Below, in pieces: positions 31,491 to 60,094 of a DNA stretch of 64,000 nucleotides (position 1 is the first letter of the stretch; each line of letters begins with the position of its first letter). Under the pieces are notes generated by a model. That model saw nothing but the letters and a program-made list of their open reading frames with translations. It was not told the DNA's origin and ran no database searches. The position numbers and the translations under genes were made by a program. The DNA is from Minisyncoccota bacterium (GTDB lineage: Bacteria > Patescibacteriota > Minisyncoccia > UBA6257 > XYB1-36-10): contig JBAZJH010000001.1 in NCBI GenBank assembly GCA_041651415.1, forward strand, positions 151,713-215,712, given 5' to 3'.

Positions 31491-31625
31491 ATGAAACTCC
31501 ACGGCCTTACGGCCGTAGAATCTTCAAGTTTCACCCCGCCAAAGGCGGGGTTAATTAAATCTTTACCGCTTCAAACTCCTTAGCTAACGCGCGAGATTTT
31601 CTTTTCGCGGAGATTTAATAAAAAG
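31491..31625 (+). repeat. REP/BIME-like mosaic palindromic element, copy 1 (CCACGGCC hairpin + GTTTCACCCCGCC-aaag-GGCGGGGTT + TTATTAAATCTTT..GCGCG.. + TTTCGCGGAGATTTAATAAAAAG)
   Basis: Shares modules with the copies at 32496, 46017(-), 54156 and 59988, and with the hairpins flanking tnpA. Confidence 0.75.
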
Positions 31626-31634
31626 AAACCGCTT

Positions 31635-31847
31635 TTAAACGGTTTCTTGTAAAACTTCTCTTAATCTCCACCTTGTTTTTCCGCCACGACCACCAAGACA
31701 CTCGACTTGTTGAGAAAGAGCGCCTAGACTCTGTGAAACTCCATTTGCGGGCAGATTAACCTTTTGAGCTATCTGCAAAGTAGTAGCTTCTCCTCCTAAT
31801 TCCTCTAATGCTGTTAAAATAGTTCTCTGTCTTTTCTTAAGCGTCAT
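31635..31847 (-). CDS. Small winged-helix DNA-binding protein (70 aa)
   Basis: RQRTILTALEELGGEATTLQIAQKVNLPANGVSQSL is a wHTH pattern. Flanked on both sides by REP-like modules. Confidence 0.5.
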   Translation of the reverse strand: MTLKKRQRTILTALEELGGEATTLQIAQKVNLPANGVSQSLGALSQQVECLGGRGGKTRWRLREVLQETV

Positions 31848-31917
31848 ATCGCGCCTCCTTTTAGATATAAAATACTATAGTTAAAATACCAAATTATTAT
31901 GGTAAATGTAAAATAAA

Positions 31918-31945
31918 ATCATTTCGCGGAGATTTAATAAAAAAG
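31918..31945 (+). repeat. Solo tail module of the REP-like element (TTTCGCGGAGATTTAATAAAAAAG) abutting the NUDIX gene start
   Basis: Identical to the 3' module of the other copies. Confidence 0.6.
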
Positions 31946-32475
31946 TGCTTTGGAAAATAGAAAATGATAAAATAAATTTTATGGAAACAAATAATCAATA
32001 TCTTCATGAGGTGGCGATTACGGCGATAATCGTAAAAGACGGAAAATATTTGATTACAAGGCGGGCGGCGAATAAGAAAAGATTCCCGGGGATGTGGACT
32101 GTGCCGGGAGGAAAAATGGAAACGAGCGATTATTTGAAACTGCCGAAAGACACCGAATTTTATTGGTACAACGTTTTAGAGAGGACACTCAGAAGAGAAA
32201 TAAAAGAAGAAGTGGGGATTGAAATAGACAATATCGAATATATAACCAGTCTTGCAACGGTTCATAATGACGGAAGTCCATCACTCGTAATTTCCTGCGC
32301 GGCGGATTATGTTTTGGGAGAAGTGAAGCTTCAATTGGAAGAGAACGATGAGTTTGCTTGGGTTAGCTTAGAAGAAGCAAAAAATTACAAACTTTTGGAC
32401 GGAATTTTTGATGAGATGGCGATGGTGGAAAAAAAGAGAAAAGGAAAAAAAGAAGAGTGGAGAAGGTTTAACTGA
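31945..32475 (+). CDS. NUDIX hydrolase
   Basis: Nudix box GGKMETSDY...RTLRREIKEEVGIEI (G-x5-E-x7-REuxEExGu). Confidence 0.8.
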   Translation: MLWKIENDKINFMETNNQYLHEVAITAIIVKDGKYLITRRAANKKRFPGMWTVPGGKMETSDYLKLPKDTEFYWYNVLERTLRREIKEEVGIEIDNIEYITSLATVHNDGSPSLVISCAADYVLGEVKLQLEENDEFAWVSLEEAKNYKLLDGIFDEMAMVEKKRKGKKEEWRRFN

Positions 32476-32495
32476 ATATAAGACTCCAGCTGACG

Positions 32496-32606
32496 CACGG
32501 GGTTTTGCGGAGATTTAAACGAAACTCAATTTTGAGTTTCACCCCGCCTACGACGGGGTTTTATTAAATCTTAGCCGTAGAAACCTTGCGCTAACGCGCA
32601 ATGTTT
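32496..32606 (+). repeat. REP/BIME-like mosaic element, copy 2 (tail-fragment + GAAACTCAATTTTGAGTTTC hairpin + GTTTCACCCCGCC-tacg-ACGGGGTT + TTATTAAATCTTAGCCG..GCGCTAACGCGC)
   Basis: Module comparison by eye. The central CCACGGCC hairpin is deleted, leaving the GAAACT...AGTTTC outer stem. Confidence 0.7.
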
Positions 32607-32708
32607 TTTTAGCGTTATTTTGAAAAAAAGTCAAAAGTGAAACTTTTTTTACTTTTTTGCGTATTATTATATAGCACTTGCTAAAACCATATCCCATAGG
32701 AGGCGAAG

Positions 32709-33185
32709 ATGATTTCTTTTTCGCTAATGTTGGCAATTCTTTTTTCCGGTTCTATCTCAGGAGAAGAGAAAGGTACTTTACCCTCTTGCTTTTCCGTTCA
32801 GTCAAAGACTGGATGGCGGGAAGACACGAAGGTAAACTTAACCGAAAAGTCGCTGAAATACGCATTTTTTTTGCGTGATACGGCGATGAAAGAGGGATTA
32901 GGGGAGAAAGACCTCATATTATTAGGGAAAGCCGCCGAAACGGAAAGCGGTTGGAAACAATATGATGAGAATGGGAATGTTTTGCGCGGAGAAAATAATC
33001 CGCGAGTAGTGGGGATTTTTCAGATTTGTGAGGATTCTCATAAAAGAGAAGCGAAAAAAATGGGATTGGATATAATGACCCCAAAAGGAAACATTAAATA
33101 TGCGGTTTTTCTTTATAAAAAGGAGAGGCTTCGGCCTTGGAGGACAAACCGGAAATTAATGAATTTCATCAGAAATTTGGGGTAG
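32709..33185 (+). CDS. Lytic transglycosylase (SLT/lysozyme-like domain), secreted
   Basis: Signal peptide, then AETESGWKQ...GIFQI (the E-S...G-[LI]-[MF]-Q-I SLT catalytic motif). Confidence 0.65.
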   Translation: MISFSLMLAILFSGSISGEEKGTLPSCFSVQSKTGWREDTKVNLTEKSLKYAFFLRDTAMKEGLGEKDLILLGKAAETESGWKQYDENGNVLRGENNPRVVGIFQICEDSHKREAKKMGLDIMTPKGNIKYAVFLYKKERLRPWRTNRKLMNFIRNLG

Positions 33186-33296
33186 ATATTCCAAAGCTCC
33201 GATTTTAAAAATCGGGGCTTTTTTTATAAACAGGTTTCTGATAAAATAAAAGCAGAATTCGAACTTTAACAAAAAAAGAAAGGCGAGGAGGTTTCT

Positions 33297-33842
33297 ATGG
33301 TTGACCTTCTAAAAAACGAAATAGAAAAAGAGTTTTGCCAAAATTGCCAAGGGATTTTAGAAGAAGAGGAGGTTTTTGAAGGTACAGGCGGTGAGCGCAT
33401 TTGTAAATCATGCTGGGCAACTTTAAAGTTGAAAATAGAAAAATCCAAGGAGGAAGGAAAGAAGAAGATGGATTTTTCTTGTAGATCTATAGAATTCAGG
33501 ACTCATTTTTGTGCCAAAGGACAAGGTTTCAATCTATCTGTTAAAAGCGGAGAGATTCTTGATAAGAATGGGAACTTACTACCGGAAAATAAAATCTGTT
33601 TTTTTGTAGATATTTCTAAAAACGGATTCTATAAAGAGTTGGAAGGAAAAAAGGGAGAAAAAGAAATTACGGTAACCTCGACTTTTCTACATAAAGGAGA
33701 ACAATATTTTTATAGATTAAAAATCCCGATCAAGACAGATGAAAATGGAAATTTTCTCGAATTAGGAGCAGAAGATGATTTCAAAAAAACAATTCTGCCT
33801 TCCAGAGAATTTATCAAACAAAAATTGTTTTTTGATAAATGA
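33297..33842 (+). CDS. Hypothetical zinc-ribbon protein
   Basis: CQNCQG...CKSC N-terminal zinc ribbon. 181 aa. Confidence 0.45.
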   Translation: MVDLLKNEIEKEFCQNCQGILEEEEVFEGTGGERICKSCWATLKLKIEKSKEEGKKKMDFSCRSIEFRTHFCAKGQGFNLSVKSGEILDKNGNLLPENKICFFVDISKNGFYKELEGKKGEKEITVTSTFLHKGEQYFYRLKIPIKTDENGNFLELGAEDDFKKTILPSREFIKQKLFFDK

Positions 33843-33849
33843 ACAAATG

Positions 33850-33888
33850 ACGGCTTTGCCTTATAAGGCAAAGCCGTTTATTTTTTTT
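33850..33888. terminator. Bidirectional terminator (ACGGCTTTGCCTTATAAGGCAAAGCCGT + T-run); overlaps the last codons of the minus-strand GT4 gene
   Basis: Perfect 12-bp stem, seen directly. Confidence 0.6.
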
Positions 33889-35009
33889 AAAATTTCAGAT
33901 TTGAAATTATCTTTGCTGAATTTTTCGGCGGTTTTGGATAAAAAATGAGAATCGAATCTGGCTTCCGGAAGGCGGCCAATTGCTTCAATAATAGCTTCCG
34001 GAGTTTGTTCTTTAATAAAAAATCCATTGACGCCTTCTTCTATAATATCGGAAGAACCGCCAATGTTATAAGCGATAACCGGAGTGCCGCAAGCAATAGC
34101 TTCCGCGGCCACCAATCCGAAATCTTCTACTTGAGGGAAAATAAAAGCTTTAGCATTGCCATACATAGCGCGCATTTCATTATCAGTCATCAGAGCGGTG
34201 ATAAAATGCGTGTTTTTGGAAGTATTCAATTTAATCAGATTTTTTAGTTCCGGACCGCGGCCGACAATTTTTAAGGGAAGCTTAAGTTCATTAAAAGCCT
34301 GAATAACAATATCGAATTTTTTATAGTGCATCAGACGTCCGGCAGCCAAAAAATATTGGCGGTTTTTATAAAGATTCTCCGGATAAAAAACGTTCAAATC
34401 AACCGGCGGAAAAATAATTTCCGATTCTCTTTGATAATATTCCCGAATTTTGCCGGAAATGTATTTGGAAAGAGTAATGATTTCATCCGGTTTTTGTCCG
34501 GCTTCCATATCCCATTTTTTTAAATAAGAAACAAAAGGAGAAAGAATGGGCTTGAGAAGGCCGTAATTGCTGCCAAATTTTCCTTTTAAAAAATTATCCG
34601 ACTCCCAAGCATAACGAAGAGGCGTGAAACAATAAGAAAGATGGTAGCTGTTCTTATAAGTAATGCCTTTGGAGTAGCCGGCGCCGATAGAGATAATCAA
34701 ATCATAATTGTTGCCAAGGTTCAGACTTTCCGCCGCTTTCGGCATTAAAGGGATAAAAAGGCGATGATTGTCAATGACTATTTTTTTGTCTAAAAAAGAA
34801 GTTTTTTTAATTCTTTCTTTGGGGATGCGGCCAAAAGTTTTGTTTCGGTCAAAAAAAAGAGTAAAAAGGTCGGCTTTCGGAAAAATCTCCAGAAAATTTC
34901 CCAAAACTCTTTCACCGCCTCCATATTGGTTTAAATAATCATAAGAAAGAGCGATTCTCATTAATGGCATTATAGCTTTTTTGCCGATTTTCTGAAAATT
35001 TTCCGCCAA
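33861..35009 (-). CDS. Glycosyltransferase family 4 (GT1/GT4 retaining GT-B)
   Basis: C-terminal GT-B domain with the E-x7-E region (GTPVIAYNIGGSSDIIEEGVNGFF). Confidence 0.8.
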   Translation of the reverse strand: MAENFQKIGKKAIMPLMRIALSYDYLNQYGGGERVLGNFLEIFPKADLFTLFFDRNKTFGRIPKERIKKTSFLDKKIVIDNHRLFIPLMPKAAESLNLGNNYDLIISIGAGYSKGITYKNSYHLSYCFTPLRYAWESDNFLKGKFGSNYGLLKPILSPFVSYLKKWDMEAGQKPDEIITLSKYISGKIREYYQRESEIIFPPVDLNVFYPENLYKNRQYFLAAGRLMHYKKFDIVIQAFNELKLPLKIVGRGPELKNLIKLNTSKNTHFITALMTDNEMRAMYGNAKAFIFPQVEDFGLVAAEAIACGTPVIAYNIGGSSDIIEEGVNGFFIKEQTPEAIIEAIGRLPEARFDSHFLSKTAEKFSKDNFKSEILKKINGFAL

Positions 35010-35027
35010 TAAGGTATAATCTTAAAA

Positions 35028-35627
35028 ATGAAATACGATTTTTCGAAAAGAGCGATGGATTTGGTGATATTTTTTTTGGTTTTGCCTTTTTTTGTTTTAA
35101 TTCTTCCTTTTGTAGCTTTAGCAATAAAAGCGGAAAGCAGAGGCCCGGTCTTTTTTAAAGCAAGAAGAGTAAGCAAGGGAAGGGCGGTAACGATTTATAA
35201 GTTTCGAACAATGGCTTTGGGAGCGGAAGAAAAGAAAAAAGAATTAAATCATCTAAACGAAAGAAAAGACGGTCCTTTTTTTAAAATATCCAAAGACCCG
35301 AGAGTAACAAAAATCGGGCGGATACTTCGAAAATTTTGGATAGACGAAACGCCGCAAATTTTTAACGTTTTAAAAGGCGAAATTTCTTTTGTCGGGCCAA
35401 GACCGTATGAACCGGAAGAAATGGAAAAATATCCGGAAGAATACAGATTTTTGAAAAATGAGAAAGCGGGGATAACCGGACTTTCTCAAATAAAAGGTTC
35501 CTCCAATCTGCCTTTTTTAGAAGTTTTGAAATATGACGCTTATTACGCACGGCATAAAAGTTTAGGGCTGGATTTAAAAATCCTTTTTAAAACATTCCTG
35601 CTTCTTTTTGACCCTTCCGGAGTTTAA
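35028..35627 (+). CDS. Polyprenyl-phosphate sugar phosphotransferase (bacterial sugar transferase, PglC/WbaP C-terminal-domain-like)
   Basis: RAMDLV...LLxLP re-entrant helix, KFRTM, and GPRP motifs. Confidence 0.8.
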   Translation: MKYDFSKRAMDLVIFFLVLPFFVLILPFVALAIKAESRGPVFFKARRVSKGRAVTIYKFRTMALGAEEKKKELNHLNERKDGPFFKISKDPRVTKIGRILRKFWIDETPQIFNVLKGEISFVGPRPYEPEEMEKYPEEYRFLKNEKAGITGLSQIKGSSNLPFLEVLKYDAYYARHKSLGLDLKILFKTFLLLFDPSGV

Positions 35628-35635
35628 AGATTCTA

Positions 35636-37051
35636 ATGCATACGCACGACGGAGCTTTTTATATTTCGGTCTTAGCTTTAACAGGAATTTTTGCCGGAAC
35701 AGTTTTAAGAGTCTCTGATTTTTTTGTTCTGGCCGGCATTTGCCTTTTGGCTTTTTTAACTTTATTTATCGCTTTTTTAACCAAAGAAAAAAAGTTTTGG
35801 GCGGTTTTAGCGGCGCTCCTTTTTTTCTTTTTTTTCGGATTTTTATACGGACAAAATTTTGTTTTAAAAAGCGCGGGAAAATATCCGGAATTCAATAAGG
35901 CCAAAACTTATTTTTCTGGACAAGCGGAAGGAGAGCCGATTTTCAAGGGAAAATCTCTGGCGTTTTATTTAACATTGGAAAAACCATATCAAGGCAAAAT
36001 AAAAATATATACGGATATTTTTTCGGAGATAAAAAAAGGAGACAAAGTTTCTTTTTCAGGAATAGTTAAAACAACAGAATACGGCGAAGTTGTTTCCTTT
36101 TTTCCAAAAATAGAAAAAAGAGAAGAAGGAAAAACGGGAATTTTAAGCGGGTTTAGAGAAAAAATTATTTCCGGATTAAAGATGTTTTTGCCGGAAAAAG
36201 AAGCGGCGCTCGCCTCGGGACTCACGCTCGGCGACCGAAAGAATTTTAGCGAAGAGTTTAAAAATAATTTAAGCAAAAGCGGAACAACGCATATCGTGGC
36301 TTTGTCGGGATACAATATCACGATTATCGTTATGGCAGCCGGTTTGGTTTTCGGATATTTTTTTAAAAAAGGAATCGCTTTTTTCTTTTCTCTTATTTTA
36401 ATTATTATTTTTACAATTATGGTCGGCGGGGAACCGTCAATCGTGAGAGCGGCCATTATGGGAGGAATAGCGCTATTTGCCGCAAAAACAGAGAGATTAT
36501 ATTCAGCGAGAAACGCGATAGCGATTTCAGCTCTGTTGATGGCAATTTTTAATCCGCTTTCTTTGAAAGAACCAGGATTCCAGCTTTCGTTCTTTTCTTT
36601 AATCGGTATTGTTTATTTTCTGCCGGCAATTAAAAATTTTCTGCCGGCCTATTTTTCTGCTCCGTCTTTTTTGAATTGGAAGGAAAATCTTTTAACGACT
36701 ATGGCGGCGCAGATGGCGGTTTTGCCTCTTGTTTTTTATTATTTCGGCGCTTTTTCAATTTTGTCTTTTTTGTCGAATATCTTAATTCTGGAATTCGTGC
36801 CATACGCCATGCTTTTTTCTTTTTTCACCGGATTTTTCAGCTTATTTTCAAATTTCGGAGAATTCGCTTCTTGGGTTTTTTCTTTTCCGGCTTATTTTAT
36901 TTTAAAATACCAAATAAGCGTGATAGATTTTTTTGCGGAGAAAAGCTGGCTTATAAAAATGGAAGATTTTGGGATAACAGCGACAATCGTTTTTTATGCC
37001 CTGATATTTTTAATAGTTTACGTCTTTTATAATAGAGAAAATGATAGATAA
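35636..37051 (+). CDS. comEC: ComEC/Rec2 competence protein, membrane portion (DUF4131 + competence domain)
   Basis: Polytopic. The GTTHIVALSGYNITII motif is typical of the ComEC competence domain. Confidence 0.75.
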   Translation: MHTHDGAFYISVLALTGIFAGTVLRVSDFFVLAGICLLAFLTLFIAFLTKEKKFWAVLAALLFFFFFGFLYGQNFVLKSAGKYPEFNKAKTYFSGQAEGEPIFKGKSLAFYLTLEKPYQGKIKIYTDIFSEIKKGDKVSFSGIVKTTEYGEVVSFFPKIEKREEGKTGILSGFREKIISGLKMFLPEKEAALASGLTLGDRKNFSEEFKNNLSKSGTTHIVALSGYNITIIVMAAGLVFGYFFKKGIAFFFSLILIIIFTIMVGGEPSIVRAAIMGGIALFAAKTERLYSARNAIAISALLMAIFNPLSLKEPGFQLSFFSLIGIVYFLPAIKNFLPAYFSAPSFLNWKENLLTTMAAQMAVLPLVFYYFGAFSILSFLSNILILEFVPYAMLFSFFTGFFSLFSNFGEFASWVFSFPAYFILKYQISVIDFFAEKSWLIKMEDFGITATIVFYALIFLIVYVFYNRENDR

Positions 37052-37904
37052 AAAAGTTATTTTTATTTTAGCGGCAGCGATTCTTTTAAATGGATTTTTT
37101 TACGCTTATATTTTAGCGAACGGAAAAGAAAAAACAGCGGTTTATTTTTTAGATGTGGGACAAGGGGACGCAGAGATGGCGATTCTGCCGGGAAGCCGAA
37201 CGGCAAGATTTTTGATAGACGGAGGGCCGGATAGAAGCGTTCTGGAAGAGCTTTCCAAAATAATGCCGTTTTTTTCAAAAAGGATTGATTTAATTTCCAT
37301 TTCCCATCCGCAAGAAGACCATATGGGAGGAATTTCTTATGTTGCGGAGAGTTTTAAAACGGGAGGGTTTGTTTCGAGCGGGGAAATAGGAAAAGGCGAA
37401 GCATGGGAAAAGTTAGAGAGAGCTTTAGAAAAAAATAAAACAAATATAATAAATCTGGCGGCGGGCGATAAAATAAAATATGGAGAAAACGAGATATTGG
37501 TTTTAAATCCGGAGACAGGAAAAAAAACGGATATGAACGAAAGCTCTCTTGTTTTGTTATTAAAAAATCCAAAGATGAATGTTCTTTTCACAGGAGATAT
37601 CGGAAAAAAAACGGAAGAAAAAATAGTTGCTGATTTAAGAAAAAACGGAGAGGCAGAAGAAATTGATGTTTTGAAAGTGGCGCACCATGGGTCAAAAAAT
37701 TCAAGCGGAGAAGATTTTATCGCAGCCTTAAAGCCGAAAGTGAGCGTAATTGAAGTCGGAAAAAACAGCTACGGACATCCGACAAAAGAAGTTCTAAACC
37801 GCCTAGCGGAAATAAGAAGCTTGATTTTCAGAACGGATAAAAAGGGAACAATGAAAGTAGAAGCGGGAGAAGATAATAAAATAAAGGTTTATGAAATCGA
37901 ATAA
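37041..37904 (+). CDS. ComEC-type metallo-beta-lactamase domain protein (separate ORF with its own N-terminal TM anchor)
   Basis: FLDVGQGDA, SHPQEDHMGG, and AHHGSKNS motifs of the ComEC MBL domain. Overlaps the upstream ORF by 11 nt in another frame. Confidence 0.75.
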   Translation: MIDKKVIFILAAAILLNGFFYAYILANGKEKTAVYFLDVGQGDAEMAILPGSRTARFLIDGGPDRSVLEELSKIMPFFSKRIDLISISHPQEDHMGGISYVAESFKTGGFVSSGEIGKGEAWEKLERALEKNKTNIINLAAGDKIKYGENEILVLNPETGKKTDMNESSLVLLLKNPKMNVLFTGDIGKKTEEKIVADLRKNGEAEEIDVLKVAHHGSKNSSGEDFIAALKPKVSVIEVGKNSYGHPTKEVLNRLAEIRSLIFRTDKKGTMKVEAGEDNKIKVYEIE

Positions 37905-37950
37905 TTTTTTTTTCTTGATAATAAAAAGCGGTTGATTTATTATTTTAGGA

Positions 37951-39339: not shown

Positions 39340-39374
39340 AACACTATTGTGTTATAATAAACATAGAGTAAAAA

Positions 39375-39548
39375 ATGTCTTTAAAAAATTTACATAGGGA
39401 TTTTGTTTCTAAGGAAGAACGGCGTTTTAAATTTGTCATAGGAAAAACCTTAGCTTCTTCTTTAACGGGATTTGTAGCCGGAGTAGTTTTTGCTTCTATT
39501 TTTTGGGGAGCTGTTCTTTATGTTTATTTTTTAGAAGCGGCTTTATAA
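39375..39548 (+). CDS. Hypothetical 57-aa membrane peptide
   Basis: Short ORF with one TM segment. Weak support. Confidence 0.25.
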   Translation: MSLKNLHRDFVSKEERRFKFVIGKTLASSLTGFVAGVVFASIFWGAVLYVYFLEAAL

Positions 39549-39772
39549 AAACCCAACGGTTCCAAAGCTGTGGATATCGCTTATTTTAAAAGTGCTATAA
39601 TAAAAGTGATCCCGCTCGCAGGAAGGTTACGGATCAAATAGCTTATAAAGGGAGGCCAGGTTAGAAAGTTCCGTGGAATTTTTTACCAGTCACCCACTTG
39701 AATTTAAGCCGATAACCTCTTTAAAGCGGGGTTTTTGTTGAAAAAAAAGGCGAAAAAGAGCAGAATTTAAAG

Positions 39773-45704: not shown

Positions 45705-46009
45705 AGATGGGAGATACGACATTAAAAGAAGCTGGATTTAAGTCTTCTCTTAAATCTCTCGAAGTTGGAGATAGATTGAGATTAAGAGAGGGTTGTTCTG
45801 TAATAACAGAAATTGGACGAAAAATCCGATTATCTCATGGAGAAGTATTGAAAGTGACGGATGATTCTCCAAAATTCTGTTATGATTCAGATCACAAAAC
45901 TGATGATAATATTTATATTGGGATAAGAGTTTCTCAAGACAAAGATGAAACTCTAGTTTCTTTTGTTGTTCCGATGAACAAATGTGAAATTATCAAACAG
46001 CGGGTTTAA
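45701..46009 (+). CDS. Hypothetical small protein (102 aa), paralog of the previous gene
   Basis: 4-nt ATGA overlap with the upstream gene. The terminator at 45999-46024 overlaps its stop. Confidence 0.45.
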   Translation: MKMGDTTLKEAGFKSSLKSLEVGDRLRLREGCSVITEIGRKIRLSHGEVLKVTDDSPKFCYDSDHKTDDNIYIGIRVSQDKDETLVSFVVPMNKCEIIKQRV

Positions 46010-46016
46010 CCCGCTT

Positions 46017-46150
46017 TTTTTTATTAAATCTCCGCGAAAACCCCGCGCGTTAGCTAATGGGTTTGAAGCGGTAAAGATTTAATAAACCCCGACTTTGGTC
46101 GGGGTGAAACTCAAGACGCCACGGCCTTACGGCCGTGGAGTTTCATTGAT
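46017..46150 (-). repeat. REP/BIME-like mosaic element, copy 3 (inverted orientation)
   Basis: The reverse complement reads GAAACTCCACGGCCGTAAGGCCGTGG...GTTTCACCCCGACCAAAGTCGGGGTTTATTAAATCTTTACCGCTTCAAACCC..GCGCGGGGTTTTCGCGGAGATTTAATAA. Confidence 0.75.
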
Positions 46151-52983: not shown

Positions 52984-53020
52984 GGCTTTTGTTTTTTAAA
53001 AAAATCGGTATAATAATGGG

Positions 53021-53058
53021 AAATTAAATAGATTCCAGTTCAAGCCTGGAATGACAAA
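53021..53058 (+). promoter_or_regulatory. Conserved 5'-leader hairpin, family B copy 1 (TTAAATAGATTCCAG-ttcaagc-CTGGAATGACAA), 9 nt upstream of the ppiB ATG; TATAAT at 53009-53014
   Basis: Same flanks as 58226-58260. Confidence 0.55.
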
Positions 53059-53061
53059 AAA

Positions 53062-53703
53062 ATGATTAAAAAAATAGCAGTTTTCGTTGTAACTTTTGCG
53101 TTTCTCGGAGGCGCAATCTGGTTTGTTAATAACAATCCGGACATTATATTTAAAAACACCAAAATGAAGGAAAGAATCGTTAAAAATTTAAGTTTTGAGA
53201 AAGAGCCGGAGATGAAAATAGACGCCGCCAAAAAATACACGGCGGAAATGGAAACTTCGGAAGGAACGATGAAGTTTGAGCTTTTTGCAAGCGAGACGCC
53301 GAAAACAGTAAACAGTTTTGTATTTCTCGCGAGGGAAGGATTTTATGAAAATACTTTTTTTCACAGGATAATTAAAGGATTTATGATCCAAGGCGGAGAC
53401 CCGAAAGGGGACGGGACAGGAGGGCCGGGATATTCTTTTTCCGATGAACCGGTAAAAAGAGATTATGAAAAAGGAGTAATTGCTATGGCTAACGCCGGAG
53501 CCAACACAAACGGAAGCCAGTTTTTTATAATGGACGAAAAAGTAAGTTTGCAGAAAGATTACACGATATTCGGAAAATTAATCGAAGGGGAAGATGTTTT
53601 AGATAAAATTGCCGAAACGCCGGTTATTGATAATGGATTCGGAGAAGTTTCCAAGCCAACCAAGAAAGTTTATGTTGAGAGCGTTAAAATAATTGAAGAA
53701 TAA
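53062..53703 (+). CDS. ppiB: Peptidyl-prolyl cis-trans isomerase, cyclophilin type
   Basis: FHRIIKGFMIQGGDP, the GYSFSDE region, and MANAGANTNGSQFFI. Confidence 0.85.
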   Translation: MIKKIAVFVVTFAFLGGAIWFVNNNPDIIFKNTKMKERIVKNLSFEKEPEMKIDAAKKYTAEMETSEGTMKFELFASETPKTVNSFVFLAREGFYENTFFHRIIKGFMIQGGDPKGDGTGGPGYSFSDEPVKRDYEKGVIAMANAGANTNGSQFFIMDEKVSLQKDYTIFGKLIEGEDVLDKIAETPVIDNGFGEVSKPTKKVYVESVKIIEE

Positions 53704-53780
53704 AATAATAACTTGACTTTTTTGTAGATTTAGTTTATACTTTTACAAGAAGTAAAAATAAAACAAAGGAGGGCAAAATA

Positions 53781-54017
53781 GTGCTTGAACAATCTATAAA
53801 GTATCAGAGAATAAAAGTTGTGGCTGGATCGGCTGTCGGTGTTGTCGAAAATCCAGACAACCCCATAAAAATAAGTTCTTCATCTGTTGTGGAAGACCAG
53901 GATTTAAATAATCATCTTAACAGAGGGTGGGAACTGATTCAGATTATTACACACCATTCTGCTAAACATGATTGCACAGCCACAGCTTTTGTTATTGGCT
54001 TTCCTATTCGTAAATGA
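53781..54017 (+). CDS. Hypothetical small protein (GTG start, AAGGAGGG RBS)
   Basis: 78-aa ORF with a strong SD 8 nt upstream. Terminator-like hairpin downstream at about 54100-54140. Confidence 0.45.
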   Translation: MLEQSIKYQRIKVVAGSAVGVVENPDNPIKISSSSVVEDQDLNNHLNRGWELIQIITHHSAKHDCTATAFVIGFPIRK

Positions 54018-54155
54018 TTCCCGGTTTACGAAGATTATTGATAGCAGGGATAGCTTAAAAGATTTTTGCGTCAGAATCTTTTAAGTGACCAATATGGCGC
54101 GCTCCCTCTCAAAGCTTTTAAAGCAATGAGGGGGATTTTTATTTTAAAACAATAA

Positions 54156-54285
54156 GGAAACTCCACGGCCGCAAGGCCGTGGAGTTTCCAAGTTTCACCC
54201 CGCCTATGGCGGGGTTTATTAAATCTTTGCCGCTTCAACCCCCGCGCGTTAGCGCGGGGGTTTCGCGGAGATTTAATAAAAAAGG
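54156..54285 (+). repeat. REP/BIME-like mosaic element, copy 4 (most complete: GGAAACTCCACGGCC-gcaa-GGCCGTGGAGTTTCC + GTTTCACCCCGCC-tatg-GCGGGGTT + TATTAAATCTTTGCCGC + CCCCCGCGC-gtta-GCGCGGGGG + TTTCGCGGAGATTTAATAAAAAA)
   Basis: Three nested perfect hairpins, read directly. Followed by GGTATAAT (a -10-like box) and the start of the 54300 ORF. Confidence 0.8.
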
Positions 54286-54299
54286 TATAATAAGGCGTA

Positions 54300-54641
54300 A
54301 TGTTTGCCTCAAAACCGAAAGATGACGGAAGATATATGTGGACAAACCATATAGCTTTAAAAATGGCGCATTATCGGATTTCGCCGAGTTTAGTGAAAAG
54401 AATCGTCAGATTTCCGGAAAGAGTGGAGGAGGGAATAGCAGAAGACACGGTGGCGGCGATGAAACAAACAGATTCCAAGAAACGGGAAGAAATTTGGACG
54501 ATGTATCAGCTTTTTAAAGGAGAAACCGGCAGAGCGAAACCAAAAATAAAATTGATAACCGCCTGGCGATATCCGGGAAAAAGTCCGAAAAGAGACCCGA
54601 TTCCCAAAGAAATTATGGATGAGGTGAGAAATATATTATAA
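54300..54641 (+). CDS. Hypothetical protein (possibly DUF4258-like)
   Basis: 113-aa ORF. Only a weak pattern resemblance (WTNHIALKMAHYRISPSLVKRIV). Confidence 0.4.
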   Translation: MFASKPKDDGRYMWTNHIALKMAHYRISPSLVKRIVRFPERVEEGIAEDTVAAMKQTDSKKREEIWTMYQLFKGETGRAKPKIKLITAWRYPGKSPKRDPIPKEIMDEVRNIL

Positions 54642-54685
54642 GTTAAAAGTTTTTAAAGTTTATAAAGCAAAATACTTAAAAAAGA

Positions 54686-54753
54686 AAAATTGGCTATTCC
54701 GACACAAGGTCGGAACAATTAAAAAAATGATATCTCCGACCAAAGTCGGAGCG
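54686..54753 (+). promoter_or_regulatory. Upstream hairpin family A, copy 2 (AAAAATTGGCTATTCCGAC-acaag-GTCGGAACAATTAAAAAAATG) plus a second hairpin ATCTCCGAC-caaa-GTCGGAGCGCC; upstream of scpA
   Basis: Seen directly. Related to 40930-40985 and 58181-58225. Confidence 0.55.
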
Positions 54754-54775
54754 CCAAGCGAAATTTATAAAAAAC

Positions 54776-55486
54776 ATGTACGAGGTAAAGACAAATAATT
54801 TTTCCGGGGCGATGGAAAAGCTTCTGGAACTTATCGAGGAGAAGAAAATGGATATAACGACCGTTAATTTGTCGGAAGTAACCGGAGATTTTTTGGCGCA
54901 TCTCTCCAGATTAAAAAAATTGGAAGACGGCGGAGAAAACATTGAACGGCTGATAGCGGATTTTATCGTGGTGGCGGCCAGACTGATTCTCTTAAAATCA
55001 AAGACACTTTTGCCGGAATTAAAGTTTTCCGAAGAAGATGAGGCGGAAGTAAAAGATTTTGAGCTCCGATTAAAAATTTATAAAGAAATGCGGGAGGCCT
55101 CAAAACTTTTTTTAGGTTTATGGCAAAGAAAAGAAAGAGGATTCGCCCGCGAACTTTTTTTGGACCGGCCGGCAATTTTTCATCCTTCAGGACAATTAAA
55201 AAAAGAAGAATTGTTTTCTATCCTTAAACAAGTGGTAGAAGGCATAAAAAGCGAGATAAAAGAAGAAAAACAGGAAAGAAAAAAGATGGTGACGGTGGAA
55301 GAAAAAATGACGGAAATGCTTTTAAAGGTAAAAGAAGGATTGGTGTCTTTTTTGAAAATCTCAAAAGGCAGGGGAAAGAGCGAAGTAGTAGCGCTATTTC
55401 TGGCAATTTTGCATTTAATCAGAGACCATCTTATTACGGCGGAACAGGAAGATAATTTTTCAGATGTTATAATAAAAAAGAGTTAA
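54776..55486 (+). CDS. scpA: Segregation and condensation protein A (kleisin)
   Basis: LLELIEEKKMDITTVNLSEVTGDFLAHL N-terminus. Followed by scpB. Confidence 0.8.
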   Translation: MYEVKTNNFSGAMEKLLELIEEKKMDITTVNLSEVTGDFLAHLSRLKKLEDGGENIERLIADFIVVAARLILLKSKTLLPELKFSEEDEAEVKDFELRLKIYKEMREASKLFLGLWQRKERGFARELFLDRPAIFHPSGQLKKEELFSILKQVVEGIKSEIKEEKQERKKMVTVEEKMTEMLLKVKEGLVSFLKISKGRGKSEVVALFLAILHLIRDHLITAEQEDNFSDVIIKKS

Positions 55487-55488
55487 AT

Positions 55489-56049
55489 ATGGAAAAGAAA
55501 AATCTAGAAGCAATTATAGAAGGAATTTTATTCGCTCACGGAGAAGCGGTAAGTTTGGAGAAAATTGCCAAGACCGTAAAAAAAGATGAAGCGGAAATAA
55601 AAAATGCTTTAAAAAATCTGGAAGAGAAATATAAAAGCGAGGGAAGCGGAATCGCGCTTGTTTATCAAAAAGACAAGGTAAAATTAATCAGCGCGCCGGA
55701 AGTGGGAAGCTATATTGAAAAAATGATCAAGGAAGATTTTGACGAAAATCTGACTCCGGCGACTTTAGAAACCTTAACTATCGCCATTTATCTTGCTCCG
55801 GTTTCAAGAGCGGAAATAGATTTTATTAGAGGCGTGAATTCCGGTTTTATGTTAAGAGCGCTTTTAATGAGAGGGCTCTTGGAAAGAAAACCCGACCCGA
55901 AACGCCCGTATATTTATTTATATGAACCGACTTTCAACCTGCTTCAATATCTCGGCGTCAAAAAAATGGAAGATTTGCCGGAATACGAGAAATACCATAA
56001 TATTTTAAAATCACACGAAGAGAGCGGAGAGAAACAGGCAAGTTTATAA
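55489..56049 (+). CDS. scpB: Segregation and condensation protein B
   Basis: EAIIEGILFAHGEAVSLEKIAK and tandem winged-helix domains. Confidence 0.8.
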   Translation: MEKKNLEAIIEGILFAHGEAVSLEKIAKTVKKDEAEIKNALKNLEEKYKSEGSGIALVYQKDKVKLISAPEVGSYIEKMIKEDFDENLTPATLETLTIAIYLAPVSRAEIDFIRGVNSGFMLRALLMRGLLERKPDPKRPYIYLYEPTFNLLQYLGVKKMEDLPEYEKYHNILKSHEESGEKQASL

Positions 56050-56068
56050 TTTTAAATCTGAAAGGAAA

Positions 56069-57079
56069 ATGAAAGATAATTATCTAAGCATCGTTTTTGT
56101 GGCAGTGATGATAGGGGTAACCTTTTTCAACCAAAAATACAATAAAGAAGAAACAGTCAGAGTGATAAAAAACGTTCCGAAAACGGAGAAGCAGGCCAGC
56201 GTTATCGCTTTAGCCGATTTAAAGCCGGCAAATTTTTCCGGACTGGTTTTAAAAACAGAAGAGATAGAAAAAAAGATAGAAGAGGAAGTGATAAAAAAAG
56301 CGGGAGAAATCAGTTTTTTAGAAGGAAAAAAAACAGAAGAGGAAAAAAACAAACCGAAAATCCCTGATTTTGAAGTGATGGCTAAAGTGGCGGCGATTTA
56401 CGACCTTACGGCAAAAAAAGAAATTTTTTCTAAAAATCCGGAAATGATTTGGCCTCTGGCCTCAATCACAAAAATAATGACGGCTGTCGTGGCAGCGGAA
56501 GAAATGGGTTTTGAAGCGCCGATTAAGATTTCGAAAGAAGCTTTAGAAACAGAAGAGATGGCCGGCAATTTTAATCCGGAAGAAGAGTTTGTTCTGCGGG
56601 ATATGATAATGTCTTTATTTTTAGTTTCTTCGAATGACGGAGCGGAAGCCATTGCGGAAAATTACGGATGGGAAAGTTTTATTGGAAAATTAAACGAGAA
56701 AGCGGCGGAAATCGGCATGGAAAAAACTTTTTACAAAGAACCGGCGGGACTTTCGCCGGAGAACACGACAAGCGCCGGAGATTTAGAAAAATTAATGGCC
56801 TATGTTTATCAAGAAAAGCCGGAACTTTTATTTTTCAGCCGGCAGAAAGAAACTGAGATAACCGATATAAAGTTTGGGAATAAGAAAACTTATAAAAGCA
56901 TAAATGAATTTGCAGGAGAAGCTAATTTTATCGGAGGGAAAACAGGCTACACGGAAGCCGCCAGAGGAAATCTTGTTTCGATTTTTTCCAAAAACGGCCA
57001 CGCAATTCTAATTATAGTTCTTGGCACGGAAGACCGATTTTCCGAAACCAGAAAACTTCTTGAGTGGACAGAGATTTAG
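56069..57079 (+). CDS. D-alanyl-D-alanine carboxypeptidase (peptidase S11, PBP5-like)
   Basis: SxxK (ASITKIMT), SxN (SSND), and KTG (GGKTGYT) motifs. N-terminal TM anchor. Confidence 0.75.
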   Translation: MKDNYLSIVFVAVMIGVTFFNQKYNKEETVRVIKNVPKTEKQASVIALADLKPANFSGLVLKTEEIEKKIEEEVIKKAGEISFLEGKKTEEEKNKPKIPDFEVMAKVAAIYDLTAKKEIFSKNPEMIWPLASITKIMTAVVAAEEMGFEAPIKISKEALETEEMAGNFNPEEEFVLRDMIMSLFLVSSNDGAEAIAENYGWESFIGKLNEKAAEIGMEKTFYKEPAGLSPENTTSAGDLEKLMAYVYQEKPELLFFSRQKETEITDIKFGNKKTYKSINEFAGEANFIGGKTGYTEAARGNLVSIFSKNGHAILIIVLGTEDRFSETRKLLEWTEI

Positions 57080-57099
57080 GTTTATTATAAAGAACAATA

Positions 57100-58173
57100 A
57101 TGATAACTTCAGAAATAATAGCTTTTAGCCCATTCATTCAGGCAATAAGAGTTTTAAGTTCGGCATCGATATCATTTTTAATAGCGCTTCTTTTGACGCC
57201 GATTGTAATGAGAGGGCTGGAAAAATTTTCCATCAGAAAGCAGATAAGAACATCGGAGGAGGCGCCGATATTTTCCAATCTGCACAAGAAAAAGGAAGGA
57301 ACGCCGACGATGGGCGGAGTGATTATTTGGGGAACAGCGATTCTTATTGCCGGGTTCTTCAGAATGATGGATATATTTTTTGACGGAATCTGGACGCAGT
57401 TTAATTTTATAAACCGAGCAGAAACATATTTGCCGATAGCGGCAATGCTGATTGCGGCTTTAGTCGGATTAACCGATGATATTTTCGGAATTTTAAAAAT
57501 CGGGGGAACAAAAAGCGGGGGATTAAAAGTAAGAAATAAATTGATACTTTACACAGCCATCGCGCTTCTTGGCGCCTGGTGGTTTTATTATCGCCTGGGC
57601 TGGGATGTGCTTTTTATCCCGTTTTTGGGGTATATCAACATCGGAATATGGTATCTGCCGCTTTTCATTTTTGTGATTGTGGCTTCGGCGTTTTCCGCTA
57701 ATGAAACGGACGGACTCGACGGACTGCTCGGCGGAGTTTCTCTTTTTACTTTTTGCGCTTTATGCGCGGTGGCTTTCGCGCTCGGGAGATATGACCTCGC
57801 GGCATTTTCGGGAGTAATAATCGGAGCGCTTCTCGCTTTTCTTTGGTTTAATATCTATCCGGCCAAATTTTTTATGGGAGACACAGGGTCAATGGCTTTA
57901 GGCATCACTATCGGCGTAATAGCAATGCTCACCAACACCGCTCTCCTCTTGCCGTTTTTCGCTTTTATTTTTGTGGTGGAATCTCTTTCGGTAATAATTC
58001 AGATGTCCAGCAAAAAAATATTTAAAAGAAAGATATTTCTTTCCACGCCGATTCACCATCATTTTGAAGCCAAAGGCTGGCACGAAACAACAGTGACAAT
58101 GCGGTTTTGGATTGTGGCGGCTATTTTAAACGTAGTCGGAGTAGTAATCTTTTTCTTAAGCAGAATATTTTAG
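57100..58173 (+). CDS. mraY: Phospho-N-acetylmuramoyl-pentapeptide transferase MraY
   Basis: PTMGG, DDIFGILKIGG, DGLDGL, GDTGSMALG, and HHHFE motifs. 10 TM helices. Confidence 0.85.
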   Translation: MITSEIIAFSPFIQAIRVLSSASISFLIALLLTPIVMRGLEKFSIRKQIRTSEEAPIFSNLHKKKEGTPTMGGVIIWGTAILIAGFFRMMDIFFDGIWTQFNFINRAETYLPIAAMLIAALVGLTDDIFGILKIGGTKSGGLKVRNKLILYTAIALLGAWWFYYRLGWDVLFIPFLGYINIGIWYLPLFIFVIVASAFSANETDGLDGLLGGVSLFTFCALCAVAFALGRYDLAAFSGVIIGALLAFLWFNIYPAKFFMGDTGSMALGITIGVIAMLTNTALLLPFFAFIFVVESLSVIIQMSSKKIFKRKIFLSTPIHHHFEAKGWHETTVTMRFWIVAAILNVVGVVIFFLSRIF

Positions 58174-58180
58174 ATAATAG

Positions 58181-58260
58181 TTGTTCCGACTTACGTCGGA
58201 ATACTCAAATTTAAAATAAATTTTATTAAATAGATTCCTGCCTACGCAGGAATGACAAGA
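58181..58260 (+). promoter_or_regulatory. Family A hairpin copy 3 (GTTGTTCCGAC-ttac-GTCGGAATACTCAAATTTAAAATAAAT) immediately followed by family B hairpin copy 2 (TTAAATAGATTCCTGC-ctac-GCAGGAATGACAA), 14 nt upstream of the 58271 ATG
   Basis: Seen directly. The two families are juxtaposed here. Confidence 0.6.
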
Positions 58261-58270
58261 GAAAATTGGC

Positions 58271-59086
58271 ATGAAAAAAATAAAAATAACAAAAGCAAAC
58301 GGAGAACAGGATTATTTTTCGGCGGAAAAATTTTTAAACTCGCTTCTTAAGTCCGGGGCTTCCAGGGAAATAGCGGGAGACATTTTAAAAAAAATAGAAG
58401 GGGAATTAAGAGAGGGAATGACAACGGGAGAAATATATAAAAAAGCTTTCAGCGAGTTAAAAAGAGAACATCGGCCGGCAGCGGCGCGCTATAGCTTAAA
58501 GCAAGCTCTGATGGAACTCGGTCCGACCGGTTATCCTTTTGAACAAATAATCGGCAGAATCTTGGAAAAAGAAGGTTATAAAGTGAGTTTTCCGGATAGC
58601 GTTCAAGGAAGATGCATCAGCCACGAAGTGGACGTGGTGGCGGAAAAAGGAAAGGAAAAAATAATGGCAGAAGTTAAATTTCATAATCAGGCGGGGTTTC
58701 GAACGGACGCCAAAACAGCGATGTACGTGCGGGGAAGATTTGAGGATTTATCTTTTATAAAAGAAAACGGCTTTAGCCGCGGCTGGCTTGTCACTAACAC
58801 TAAATTTTCAAAAGACGCGATAGATTACGCCAACTGCGCCGGAATTAAAGCGATTGGATGGGATTATCCGAGCGAGCGGGGAATTGAAGAAATGCTTACT
58901 GAATCCAAACTCTTGCCGATAACAGTTTTAATAACTTTAAACAGAGAAGAAAAAAGAAAACTATTGGAAGCGGAAATTGTGGTTTGTTCCGATTTAAAAA
59001 CAAAAGGAAAGGAAGCGAGGGGAATAATCGGAGAAAAGAAATTGATTTCCGCTTTAAGAGAAGCGGAAGAGATAGAAAATAGATAA
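58271..59086 (+). CDS. ATP-cone domain fused to a Mrr-like PD-(D/E)xK restriction endonuclease domain
   Basis: N-terminal IKITKANGEQDYFSAEKFLNSL...IAGDILKKIE (ATP-cone). C-terminal FEQIIGRILEKEGYKV...HEVDVVAE...AEVKFHNQ (D..E.K catalytic triad of the Mrr_cat fold). Confidence 0.65.
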   Translation: MKKIKITKANGEQDYFSAEKFLNSLLKSGASREIAGDILKKIEGELREGMTTGEIYKKAFSELKREHRPAAARYSLKQALMELGPTGYPFEQIIGRILEKEGYKVSFPDSVQGRCISHEVDVVAEKGKEKIMAEVKFHNQAGFRTDAKTAMYVRGRFEDLSFIKENGFSRGWLVTNTKFSKDAIDYANCAGIKAIGWDYPSERGIEEMLTESKLLPITVLITLNREEKRKLLEAEIVVCSDLKTKGKEARGIIGEKKLISALREAEEIENR

Positions 59087-59098
59087 ATCTATTTTATC

Positions 59099-59134
59099 TA
59101 TCCACGTTTGGTACATATGTACCAAACGTGGATA
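59099..59134. repeat. 36-nt perfect palindrome TATCCACGTTTGGTACAT|ATGTACCAAACGTGGATA (core GGTACATATGTACC), preceded by a second hairpin TAGATAAA-tctat-TTTATCTA; between convergent genes
   Basis: Seen directly. The core is shared with 40179-40218. Confidence 0.8.
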
Positions 59135-59194
59135 ATAGTTTATTTTAGTTTTAAAAAAACTCCCTGAAAAGGGAGTTTTAAATTTGATTCGATT

Positions 59195-59908
59195 TTAATC
59201 GACGCAGAATTCTGGGTTAAAAATAATCTCGGAGGAGAAAATGATCTTCAACTCGTAGAGCAAAATGAGCAGTTTTGACAAGGTTGTTTTCTTGTCTTTT
59301 TGGTCTTTTTGCGCTTCTTTGATGAGACTTTGAAAAAGACAAGAAAGAGAATACGTGATTTTTCCCAAGAGCTTATCAAACTCAAGCCAAGTTTCCGAAG
59401 GTAAAGATTCTTCATTATAAAGAATAGAGAAGATAGTCAATTCTCGAAGAATTTGCTGAATATTTTCTTTTCCTTCGTTAAAATTTTGAGAAAGGCGGGT
59501 AAGAAAAATTTCCGGATCTTCTAAATGATTAGGGAAATTAACCACTCCTTTGATGATGATTTTTATTTCAGCTAATCTTTTCGAATCGAGCTTCTTTTCG
59601 TCTTCCAGTTTTTGAAATGCTTTATTAACTGAATCAAGAAAAGAAGAGCTCTTTTCCGGAAAGACAATTATAAACCAGGAAAGTTCAGTGAGAAACGAAT
59701 CTTCATTCCAATCTTCTTCTTTCGGAAATTTATTTAATTTTTTTTCCCATTTTATCCTTGAGAAGGCTTTAATAAAACAAAAATGGGAAATAATTTTTAG
59801 AAGAGCGAGAAAGAAGATCTCTTCGCTTTCAGCGACAAAATCAATGAGTTTTTCCATAATGGAAGGCGGGATTTCAAAAATCGATTCATTAAGAACTAAC
59901 TTTTTCAT
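59195..59908 (-). CDS. Hypothetical protein
   Basis: 237-aa ORF with no motif recognised. Confidence 0.45.
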   Translation of the reverse strand: MKKLVLNESIFEIPPSIMEKLIDFVAESEEIFFLALLKIISHFCFIKAFSRIKWEKKLNKFPKEEDWNEDSFLTELSWFIIVFPEKSSSFLDSVNKAFQKLEDEKKLDSKRLAEIKIIIKGVVNFPNHLEDPEIFLTRLSQNFNEGKENIQQILRELTIFSILYNEESLPSETWLEFDKLLGKITYSLSCLFQSLIKEAQKDQKDKKTTLSKLLILLYELKIIFSSEIIFNPEFCVD

Positions 59909-59987
59909 TGCTTTTCTCCTTTAAGACAAGATTTTTAAGGTGCCGAAAACTGAATATGTTATAAATCCTAACAACTTAAAAGTCAAT

Positions 59988-60094
59988 GAAACTTCACAGC
60001 CTGCGGTTGTTAAGTTTCACCCCGACCAAAGTCGGGGTTTTATTAAATCTTAGCCGCAAAAACCTTGCGCTAACGCGCAATGTTTCTACGGATA
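59988..60094 (+). repeat. REP/BIME-like mosaic element, copy 5 (degenerate first hairpin GAAACTTCACAGCCTGCGGTTGTTAAGTTTC + GTTTCACCCCGACC-aaag-TCGGGGTT + TTATTAAATCTTAGCCGC..GCGCTAACGCGC.. + degenerate tail)
   Basis: Module comparison by eye. Confidence 0.7.

Follow-up and report, generated by a model that had tools for sequence, protein, structure and literature searches.

A family of three-hairpin repeats

This work concerns a family of short palindromic repeats in a 64,000-nt stretch of DNA, hereafter the window (contig JBAZJH010000001.1, positions 151,713 to 215,712; assembly GCA_041651415.1), from the small genome of a member of Candidatus Paceibacterota (Patescibacteria, the candidate phyla radiation or CPR). 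The window contains five copies and one 15-nt end fragment of a gene-less element of 114-128 nt with three hairpins. It also contains a 558-bp insertion sequence (IS) that carries the transposase gene tnpA and of which the small elements are most likely non-autonomous passengers. A first-pass annotation had reported five copies and a solo tail, and both a direct reading of the five places and an alignment of the copies over about 130 columns bore this out, the same modules being found in the same order. The modules that it had listed are real and were recovered as three hairpins. Hairpin 1 (HP1) is GAAACT-CCACGGCC-N4-GGCCGTGG-AGTTTC, hairpin 2 (HP2) is GTTTCACCCCGCC-N3/4-GGCGGGGTT, and hairpin 3 (HP3) is a long AT-rich stem, TTATTAAATCT..CCGC / GCGG.AGATTTAATAA, placed around a GC hairpin and followed by an A-run. 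The first two motifs are far above chance: the HP1 core has five matches in the window against 0.01 expected, and the HP2 pattern has three against 0.00, copies 1 and 2 being missed solely through their 3-nt loop.

The limits of the copies were refined from an empty site in a related genome (L036) and from the boundaries of the IS, and the strand given for each copy is that of its IS-like orientation. Copy 1 (31490-31617, minus strand, 128 nt) lies 35 nt past the stop codon of a deaminase gene and scored 125.6 bits with a covariance model built from nine copies. Copy 2 (about 32492-32620, minus strand, 80.2 bits) is a decayed tandem, in which the left-end remnant of one unit meets the right end of a second unit (..GAGTTTCGTT/TAAATCTCCGC, the slash marking the boundary here and below) that has lost its HP1 core and the 3' arm of HP3. 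Copy 3 (46025-46147, plus strand, 133.4 bits) is the sole copy oriented like tnpA; it is a 122-nt insertion whose coordinates cover 123 nt because of one ambiguous T. Copy 4 (54154-54275, minus strand, 122 nt, 142.8 bits) is the sole copy with three perfect hairpins, and copy 5 (59985-60098, minus strand, 114 nt, 116.9 bits), with a degenerate HP1, is located between divergent genes. The end fragment is a solo left end, TAAATCTCCGCGAAA (31922-31936, minus strand), preceded by TTTTTTAT (plus-strand 31937-31944), the remainder of the element being missing. The covariance model recovered the five copies at 80-143 bits and found no additional full copy in the window. As noted at first pass, the copies occur in both orientations (copy 3 is inverted relative to the others), show module losses and are all intergenic; the only open reading frame (ORF) that crosses copy 4 is a spurious one of 55 aa.

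An IS200-group insertion sequence in the same window

The IS occupies positions 26934-27491 on the plus strand and reads TTTTAT/ATGCC ... GGAGTTTCATT/, its limits being set by comparison with homologous ISs. It is a complete member of the IS200 group and lies directly past a terminator-like hairpin followed by ATTTTAT. The HP1 core flanks tnpA on both sides in direct orientation, a feature that had been overlooked at first pass. The left subterminal hairpin, CCACGGCC-GTAA-GGCCGTGG (26956-26975, plus strand), stands 22 nt inside the left boundary, and the right one (27463-27482, plus strand) is followed 9 nt further on by the right boundary (AGTTTCATT/); the 24-nt sequence AAACCACGGCCGTAAGGCCGTGGA is identical at 26953-26976 and 27460-27483. 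Between these hairpins, tnpA (27029-27457, plus strand) encodes a Y1 HUH transposase of 142 aa, recognized through profile matches and an alignment with IS608 TnpA. The protein matches the Pfam family Y1_Tnp (3e-28) and the NCBIfam IS200/IS605 equivalog NF033573 (116 bits, cut-off 55). In an alignment with IS608 TnpA that covers its length, the protein keeps the HUH motif (DHVHLL), the catalytic Tyr (RRYIQMQ) and, four residues beyond it, the Gln. The product of tnpA is thus an intact IS200/IS605 Y1 transposase.

Homologues of this TnpA with 70-77% identity are frequent in CPR metagenomes, for the most part on contigs of about 1 kb, and the flanks were compared at the loci of four TnpA homologues. 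A Komeilibacteria-type IS (TnpA P0031) was found in two left contexts (L016 and L017) and two right contexts (L016 and L019), and a second IS type (TnpA P0009) in two right contexts (L023 and L024). Since homologous ISs are identical inside and unlike outside, the boundaries are fixed: identity begins at TTTTTTAT/ATGCC and ends at GGAGTTTCATT/. The occurrence of both types in several contexts therefore indicates that this IS group moves, evidence that covers homologues at 70-77% protein identity and not the window's own IS. In five of the six distinct left contexts a hairpin and then a T-run plus AT stand just before the left boundary, the sixth (L023) being TTTAA; therefore, the IS inserts 3' of TTAT in terminator tails. 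In IS608 the target is TTAC. The tetranucleotide 5' of the left hairpin is AAAA with a TTAT target and AAAT with the TTAA flank of L023, and these few cases would suggest a complementarity between guide and target, position by position, as in IS608, whose guide is AAAG (PMC3597680).

These data bear on a different explanation, in which tnpA is a domesticated single-copy transposase of the RAYT type (REP-associated tyrosine transposase) and the repeats are its clients with a host function. They would then be repetitive extragenic palindromic (REP) sequences, bacterial interspersed mosaic elements (BIMEs) or REPINs, the whole forming a so-called REPtron. Such a system would agree with the presence of one tnpA in the window, with the record of the exact protein in one context, with the repetition of the hairpin on both sides of tnpA and with the mosaic, intergenic nature of the elements. 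However, TnpA scored 29.8 bits with the RAYT model NF047646, below its cut-off of 80; the hairpins that flank tnpA are direct, with IS-type left and right linkers, and are not inverted REPs; and the homologues at 70-77% identity are bounded ISs in several contexts. Moreover, each element has one TnpA-type hairpin and no inverted doublet, and nearly all copies have AATGAAACT rather than GTAG as the 5' flank of HP1. We regard this explanation as quite improbable, even though the identity of copy 4 between genomes that differ by 6-14% nearby and the apparent age of most copies, both described below, would also suit it.

Right end and target shared by the elements and the IS

In the orientation of the IS, every copy reads T-run-AT/TAAATCTCCGCG ... 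HP3 ... HP2 ... HP1 ... GGAGTTTCATT/, this orientation falling on the minus strand for copies 1, 2, 4 and 5 and on the plus strand for copy 3. The right end of the elements is the hairpin CCACGGCC..GGCCGTGG followed by AGTTTCATT/, as in the IS; element and IS right ends match over 38 nt at 92% (repeat I5), have a common stretch of 20-30 nt (GGCCGTGGAGTTTCATT) and in all cases read GGAGTTTCATT or CCTT. The target is also held in common. TTTTAT, which is found at 0.28% of window positions, precedes copies 1, 3, 4 and 5 and the solo fragment, and a T-run plus AT also precedes the IS and the elements at L001, L002 (JAGXBC01), L003 (JAGVPS01), L008b and L009. For copy 1, copy 3 and L008b this T-run is the tail of a terminator hairpin. 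The target of copy 1 (31618-31648, minus strand) is the terminator hairpin of a 70-aa minus-strand ORF followed by TTTTTAT, and that of copy 3 (46000-46024, plus strand) is the terminator hairpin GCGGGTTTAACCCGC plus TTTTTTTTAT. The GC hairpin of HP3 stands 15 nt from the left boundary and HP1 stands 9 nt from the right boundary, the linkers of IS608 being 19 nt on the left and 10 nt on the right (PMC3597680). Locus L008 (1560-1798) carries an intact tandem of the same build as copy 2, in which the right end abuts the next left end, and the junctions of the two tandems thus agree with the element boundaries.

Insertion, age and decay of the copies

The related genome L036 (GCA_028709185.1) is syntenic with the window at about 36-58 kb and encodes a lactate permease 86% identical to that of the window. 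Comparison of the two showed that the insertion of copy 3 was precise. In L036 the empty site is ...cagcgggtttaacccgcTTTTTTTTAT/TGATAAATTACAAAG... (its left side being also given as cccgcTTTTTTTTAT) and is followed by a tRNA-Gln gene, and the filled site in the window reads ...cccgcTTTTTTTTAT, then the element from TAAATCTCC to GGAGTTTCAT, then TGATAAATTGCAAAG..., that is, TTAT followed by TAAATC...GTTTCAT. Filled and empty sites differ by exactly 122 nt, with one ambiguous T and no target duplication. With the covariance model, no element was detected in any part of L036 or of a second syntenic relative, L040, copies 3 and 4 both being absent. The first-pass proposal that the elements are linked to the tnpA at 27029 thus gains a firm footing in the common right end, the TTTTAT target and the precise insertion of copy 3.

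The same empty site refutes, for copy 3, the classical miniature inverted-repeat transposable element (MITE) derived from a DDE transposon. Such a MITE, or else a degenerate array of clustered regularly interspaced short palindromic repeats (CRISPR), could account for the small size, the AT-rich ends (TAAATCTCC / AATGAAACT), the weak terminal similarity and the superficial resemblance of HP2 to a CRISPR repeat. Nevertheless, the site of copy 3 shows no duplication, and a shuffling test found no significant terminal inverted repeat: the termini AAATCTCCGCG and AAA-CTCCACG agree at 9 of 11 positions with a gap, a similarity that 55-62 of 500 shuffles equalled. As for CRISPR, the copies are 1-14 kb apart and lie in both orientations, and neither an array nor regular spacers were seen; the idea had already been dismissed at first pass on spacing and orientation, and correctly so. 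We find either alternative hardly credible. Thus, of the REP/MITE label that the repeats had received, a mosaic palindromic mobile family linked to tnpA holds, and the assignments to RAYT-type REP/BIME and to classical MITEs do not.

Other sites give an indication of age. Contig L010, which shares its source metagenome with L008 and L009, shows synteny with the window at 51.3-62.9 kb with 84-93% identity, and at the site of copy 5 it carries only a head-plus-tail remnant of about 45 nt. Therefore, copy 5 predates the split from L010, and cores are lost by internal deletion. This is also how palindrome-associated transposable elements (PATEs), non-autonomous derivatives of IS200/IS605 elements first defined in Haloquadratum walsbyi, lose their cores (PMC3119063). 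Copy 4 shows no differences from its counterpart in L010 over 133 aligned positions, in spite of flanks that differ at 23 of 168 nt upstream and at 20 of 342 nt in the downstream gene (6-14%). The identical tract measures 230 nt and extends into coding sequence, and it may be the result of selection or a recombination tract. Elsewhere, copy 2 and L008b are without the HP1 core, and a 72-nt copy at L001 is without the tips of HP1 and HP3. In general, the copies decay as hairpin tips and internal segments are deleted, and both loops and modules become inverted.

The gene order around the copies was also compared. In L036 (17133-19020) and L040 (11287-13189), CbiZ and CobD genes lie between a peptidyl-prolyl isomerase gene and a gene for 112/113 aa; they are missing in the window (53703-54300), where copy 4 is at the junction, and in L010. 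In relatives L031 and L033, SecA is directly followed by the NUDIX gene with a 20-nt gap. The window (28345-33185) has in succession SecA, the deaminase gene, copy 1, the 70-aa ORF, the solo left end, the NUDIX gene and copy 2. The elements around copies 1 and 2 appear to mark a local rearrangement, the SecA-NUDIX adjacency being broken. From this and the CbiZ/CobD difference at copy 4, it follows that copies stand at sites of gene-order difference.

A proposed mechanism for the mobility of the elements

The intact TnpA with IS-type ends, the common right end, the TTTTAT target, the precise insertion of copy 3 and the decay by deletion together make it probable that the repeats are PATE-like non-autonomous IS200/IS605 elements mobilised by the resident IS200-group TnpA. 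In this family, dimers of TnpA recognise subterminal hairpins on a single strand and cleave at guide-set sites, and a single-stranded circle is freed and inserted on the 3' side of a fixed tetra- or pentanucleotide in single-stranded DNA, mainly in the lagging-strand template (PMC3597680, PMC6006769). Judging from its sequence, the IS of the window has all the parts that this mechanism needs. In the case of the small elements, TnpA, supplied in trans, would bind HP1 at the right end plus a left-end structure. The latter would be HP3, with 15 nt between its GC hairpin and the boundary, as compared with 19 nt in IS608 and 22 nt in the window IS. The outer stem of HP3 pairs the flanking TTAT and the first 7 nt of the element with the internal AGATTTAATAA and could in this way hold the cleavage site. 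Cleavage by TnpA on one strand, after TTAT and after CATT, would then release a single-stranded circle, which would re-insert 3' of another TTTTAT in single-stranded DNA at the replication fork, by peel-and-paste as for IS608.

It must be taken into account that several observations weigh against this interpretation. The left end of the elements (TAAATCTCCGCG...) does not resemble that of the IS in sequence, and its GC hairpin (CCCCCGCGC..) is unlike the TnpA hairpin, there being one clear TnpA-type hairpin per element; in copies 1 and 3 the tip of HP3 is, moreover, degenerate. The weak similarity between the two element termini is not significant. The exact TnpA of the window is on record in one context, and most copies look old rather than active, given that copy 5 predates the split from L010 and that the site of copy 4 is fixed. 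Orientation is a further point. Because the GC skew is positive in every 4-kb bin of the window (0.08-0.30) and the majority of genes have plus-strand orientation, the window is probably one replichore arm in which the plus strand carries the leading-strand sequence. Only the IS and copy 3 would then be oriented as expected for the lagging-strand template, copies 1, 2, 4 and 5 being opposite; with five copies in all, these four could be frozen copies or products of later rearrangement.

DNA palindromes or a structured RNA

The strength of the hairpins raises the possibility that the elements are a structured RNA (a small RNA gene, or else a module of 3'-untranslated regions or terminators), for which mobility would be secondary or absent. 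Copy 4 folded as DNA gives -56.6 kcal/mol, against -21.5 +/- 2.9 for shuffled sequences (z about -12), and folded as RNA it is equally good on either strand (z about -12). Pairing was analysed in 12 copies from at least four genomes, with GC contents of 37-49%. The three-hairpin structure persists in these copies: 83.7% of the cells are paired, against 31-53% with slid partners, and 10 pairs have changed on both sides, against 5.6 +/- 1.6 in shuffles; the HP3 stem, for instance, reads AAATCT/AGATTT, AAATTC/GAATTT or AAATCCC/GGGATTT in different genomes. Such compensatory changes, like the very stable fold, would favour an RNA, although template switching within a palindrome can itself yield paired changes. 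Other points in its favour are the near invariance of HP2 in the 12 copies, the fact that HP2 of copy 2 reads as an intrinsic terminator, the proximity of 5 of 12 sites to co-directional stop codons, the 72-nt version at L001, in which the stem bases and HP2 are kept and the tips alone are gone, and the complete conservation of copy 4.

Nonetheless, other features are not those of an RNA. G.T and A.C mismatches number 9 and 8 in HP3 and 2 and 4 in HP2, and this absence of asymmetry does not speak for an RNA read from a single strand. Between copies the loops occur in inverted form (TTAC, GTAA or GCAA in HP1; TAAC or GTTA in HP3), and at L009 (3991-4123) the whole of HP3 is inverted relative to all other copies, with its bulge and loop on the opposite side and its outer AT-rich arms unmoved. 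The elements lie in both orientations, with four sites upstream of divergent genes. Copy 3 is a precise insertion at an IS-type target with an IS right end, and the identical tract of copy 4 could be a recombination tract, as it runs into coding sequence. At first pass, membership of a known structured RNA family had been named as a ground for rejecting the reading; a search of the whole window with Rfam at gathering thresholds gave no match on the elements, and a permissive search with copy 4 returned hairpin noise, the best score being 31.8 bits against a threshold of 60. Because of the equal mismatches, the inverted loops and modules, the two orientations and the lack of an Rfam match, the elements appear to behave as DNA palindromes and not as an RNA gene, which we consider unlikely. 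Palindromic DNA is also what single-strand transposition needs.

A possible host use of the middle hairpin

No module is better conserved than HP2, in which 20 of 26 positions are invariant or nearly so in the 12 copies, and yet the IS has nothing that corresponds to it. Read on the opposite strand from the IS-like orientation, HP2 consists of a GC stem followed by TTTATT, and a terminator scan flagged it in copy 2, the one copy scanned. Five of the 12 element sites start between -4 and 35 nt from a co-directional stop codon, with the gene on that same strand, and four of the 12 are upstream of divergent genes. Our best guess is that HP2 may provide the convergent upstream gene with an intrinsic terminator, which would explain why insertions behind terminators are tolerated. 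HP2 may have been kept because it serves the host, and both its invariance and the identity of copy 4 across diverged genomes may be pointers to such a use. The first-pass suggestion that copy 4 supplies a TATAAT promoter box found no support: the box lies outside the element and is also present in relatives that do not have the element.

A more speculative reading, to which we give limited credence, is that the scaffold formed by the two stem bases and HP2 has been co-opted in these reduced, gene-dense genomes as a portable terminator or insulator, with the left end finding its target by Watson-Crick pairing. Insertion behind a terminator on one strand may then supply a terminator for the other. 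The 72-nt copy at L001 retains only the stem bases and HP2, and the internal AGATTTA-ATAA is complementary to the first 7 nt of the element plus the flanking TTAT. If true, Watson-Crick targeting by the left end would differ from the geometry of guide and cleavage site in IS608.

Distribution, neighbouring genes and significance

An exact-pattern scan of GTDB species genomes returned seven stretches, of which L001, L002 and L003 carry the element, and a scan of JGI metagenomes returned three contigs, all from one sample. The exact-pattern scan of viral contigs and a BLASTN search of plasmids and phages with copy 4 gave no match. The covariance model detected no element within 10 kb of tnpA homologues in Komeilibacteria and other CPR, nor near NUDIX orthologues. 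The family thus seems to be rare or narrowly distributed, as seen with strict scan patterns. The 72-nt minimal copy at L001 (3077-3148) lies 5 nt upstream of a divergent gene start, on a contig binned as an uncultured gammaproteobacterium (GC 46%), which is either a mis-binned contig or a case of transfer outside Patescibacteria. Within the window, GCGGAGATTAAAAAA at 22303 was considered as a further remnant and is too weak to call; at 22303-22350, GCGGAGATTAAAAAAA stands right past a stop codon and is followed by a terminator hairpin, and it is either a worn left-end fragment or a chance match.

Some neighbouring genes merit mention. The NUDIX protein (31981-32475) is 80-87% identical to more than 100 cluster representatives from many CPR classes, among them Komeilibacteria, Portnoybacteria, Nealsonbacteria and Brennerbacteria, very many of them on contigs of about 1 kb. 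This conservation is unusually high for such distant lineages, and the short contigs hint at flanking repeats or strain variation. The 70-aa ORF between the solo left end and copy 1 (31635-31847, minus strand) has a terminator of its own; its matches to winged-helix families are weak and do not reach the Pfam cut-offs (the best being HTH_24, E = 0.002), and it could be cargo or have been inserted later. About 290 nt of the window (53704-53990) are absent from the syntenic L010. A 78-aa ORF in that stretch (53781-54017), preceded by TTGACT..TATACT and AAGGAGG, had no family match. The window also carries a bacterial RNase P RNA of class A (15213-15578, minus strand, 188.9 bits) and four tRNA genes (Glu-CTC, Gly-CCC, Thr-CGT and Gln-CTG).

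Paceibacterota genomes are very small and tightly packed. A narrow keyword search of the literature, which is weak evidence, found no description of MITE- or PATE-like repeats in this group. Since five copies occur in 64 kb, at terminators, beside a tRNA gene and at gene-order differences, our data suggest that elements of this kind play a part in changes of gene order and perhaps in setting transcription boundaries. The window also offers a clean case for the study of single-strand transposition, with a 558-bp IS, passengers that have only its right end and target, and a pair of filled and empty sites, and it asks how much left-end similarity TnpA needs. There is a practical side as well, as hairpin repeats break short-read assemblies and many homologous tnpA genes are found on contigs of about 1 kb.

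Comparison with known systems

The 558-bp IS resembles the IS200/IS605 family in its Y1 HUH TnpA with the H-u-H motif, Tyr and Gln kept, in having similar subterminal hairpins at both ends, on the same strand and in direct orientation, without inverted repeats, and in its insertion 3' of a specific tetranucleotide. Its homologues at 70-77% identity also resemble the family in their occurrence in several genomic contexts without duplication. It differs from IS200 of Salmonella in being compact (558 bp as opposed to about 700 bp), and from IS200 and IS608 in its target within terminator T-runs (TTTTAT) and in the sequence of its hairpin.

The pneumococcal BOX and the neisserial Correia elements are likewise built of ordered modules that may be missing or repeated, form strong hairpins and affect the expression of neighbouring genes. 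Correia elements have inverted repeats and a TA duplication, and BOX is not known to have a transposase. In contrast to both, a cognate IS end and target can be identified for the elements of the window.

Like REPs, BIMEs and REPINs with their RAYTs (PMC6006769, PMC5581495), the elements are short intergenic palindromes akin to the ends that a Y1 transposase recognises; they are likewise mosaics of modules found in either orientation, and may act as terminators or stabilise messenger RNA. They differ in that the transposase is not a RAYT and that no REPtron, inverted doublet or GTAG guide is present, and in showing the fixed target of an IS and precise insertion. As to single-copy inheritance, tnpA is present once in the window and on record in one context, and its close homologues occur in multiple contexts.

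The closest likeness is to PATEs, which were later seen in Geobacillus stearothermophilus as well (PMC10055086). At 114-128 nt the elements are too short for a transposase gene, they have precise boundaries without target duplication (copy 3 against L036) and lack terminal inverted repeats, and their insertion point is on the 3' side of the short specific oligonucleotide that the IS also targets. Palindromes lie near both termini, at 15 nt from the 5' end and 9 nt from the 3' end, and in PATEs too the distance is longer at the 5' end (PMC3119063). Core deletion leaving terminal remnants, as in L010 at the site of copy 5 and in the solo left end, is another common trait. The elements differ from PATEs in that only the right end matches the resident IS200/IS605 end (38 nt, 92%), the left end being without similarity, and in having the extra invariant HP2. 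They also differ in their partner, a tnpA-only element of the IS200 group without tnpB or omega-RNA, and in their host, one of the Patescibacteria. This is, then, a known kind of element in a little-studied host, and nothing in it contradicts current understanding; as a small system it is useful for its pair of filled and empty sites, its hybrid ends and its invariant middle hairpin.

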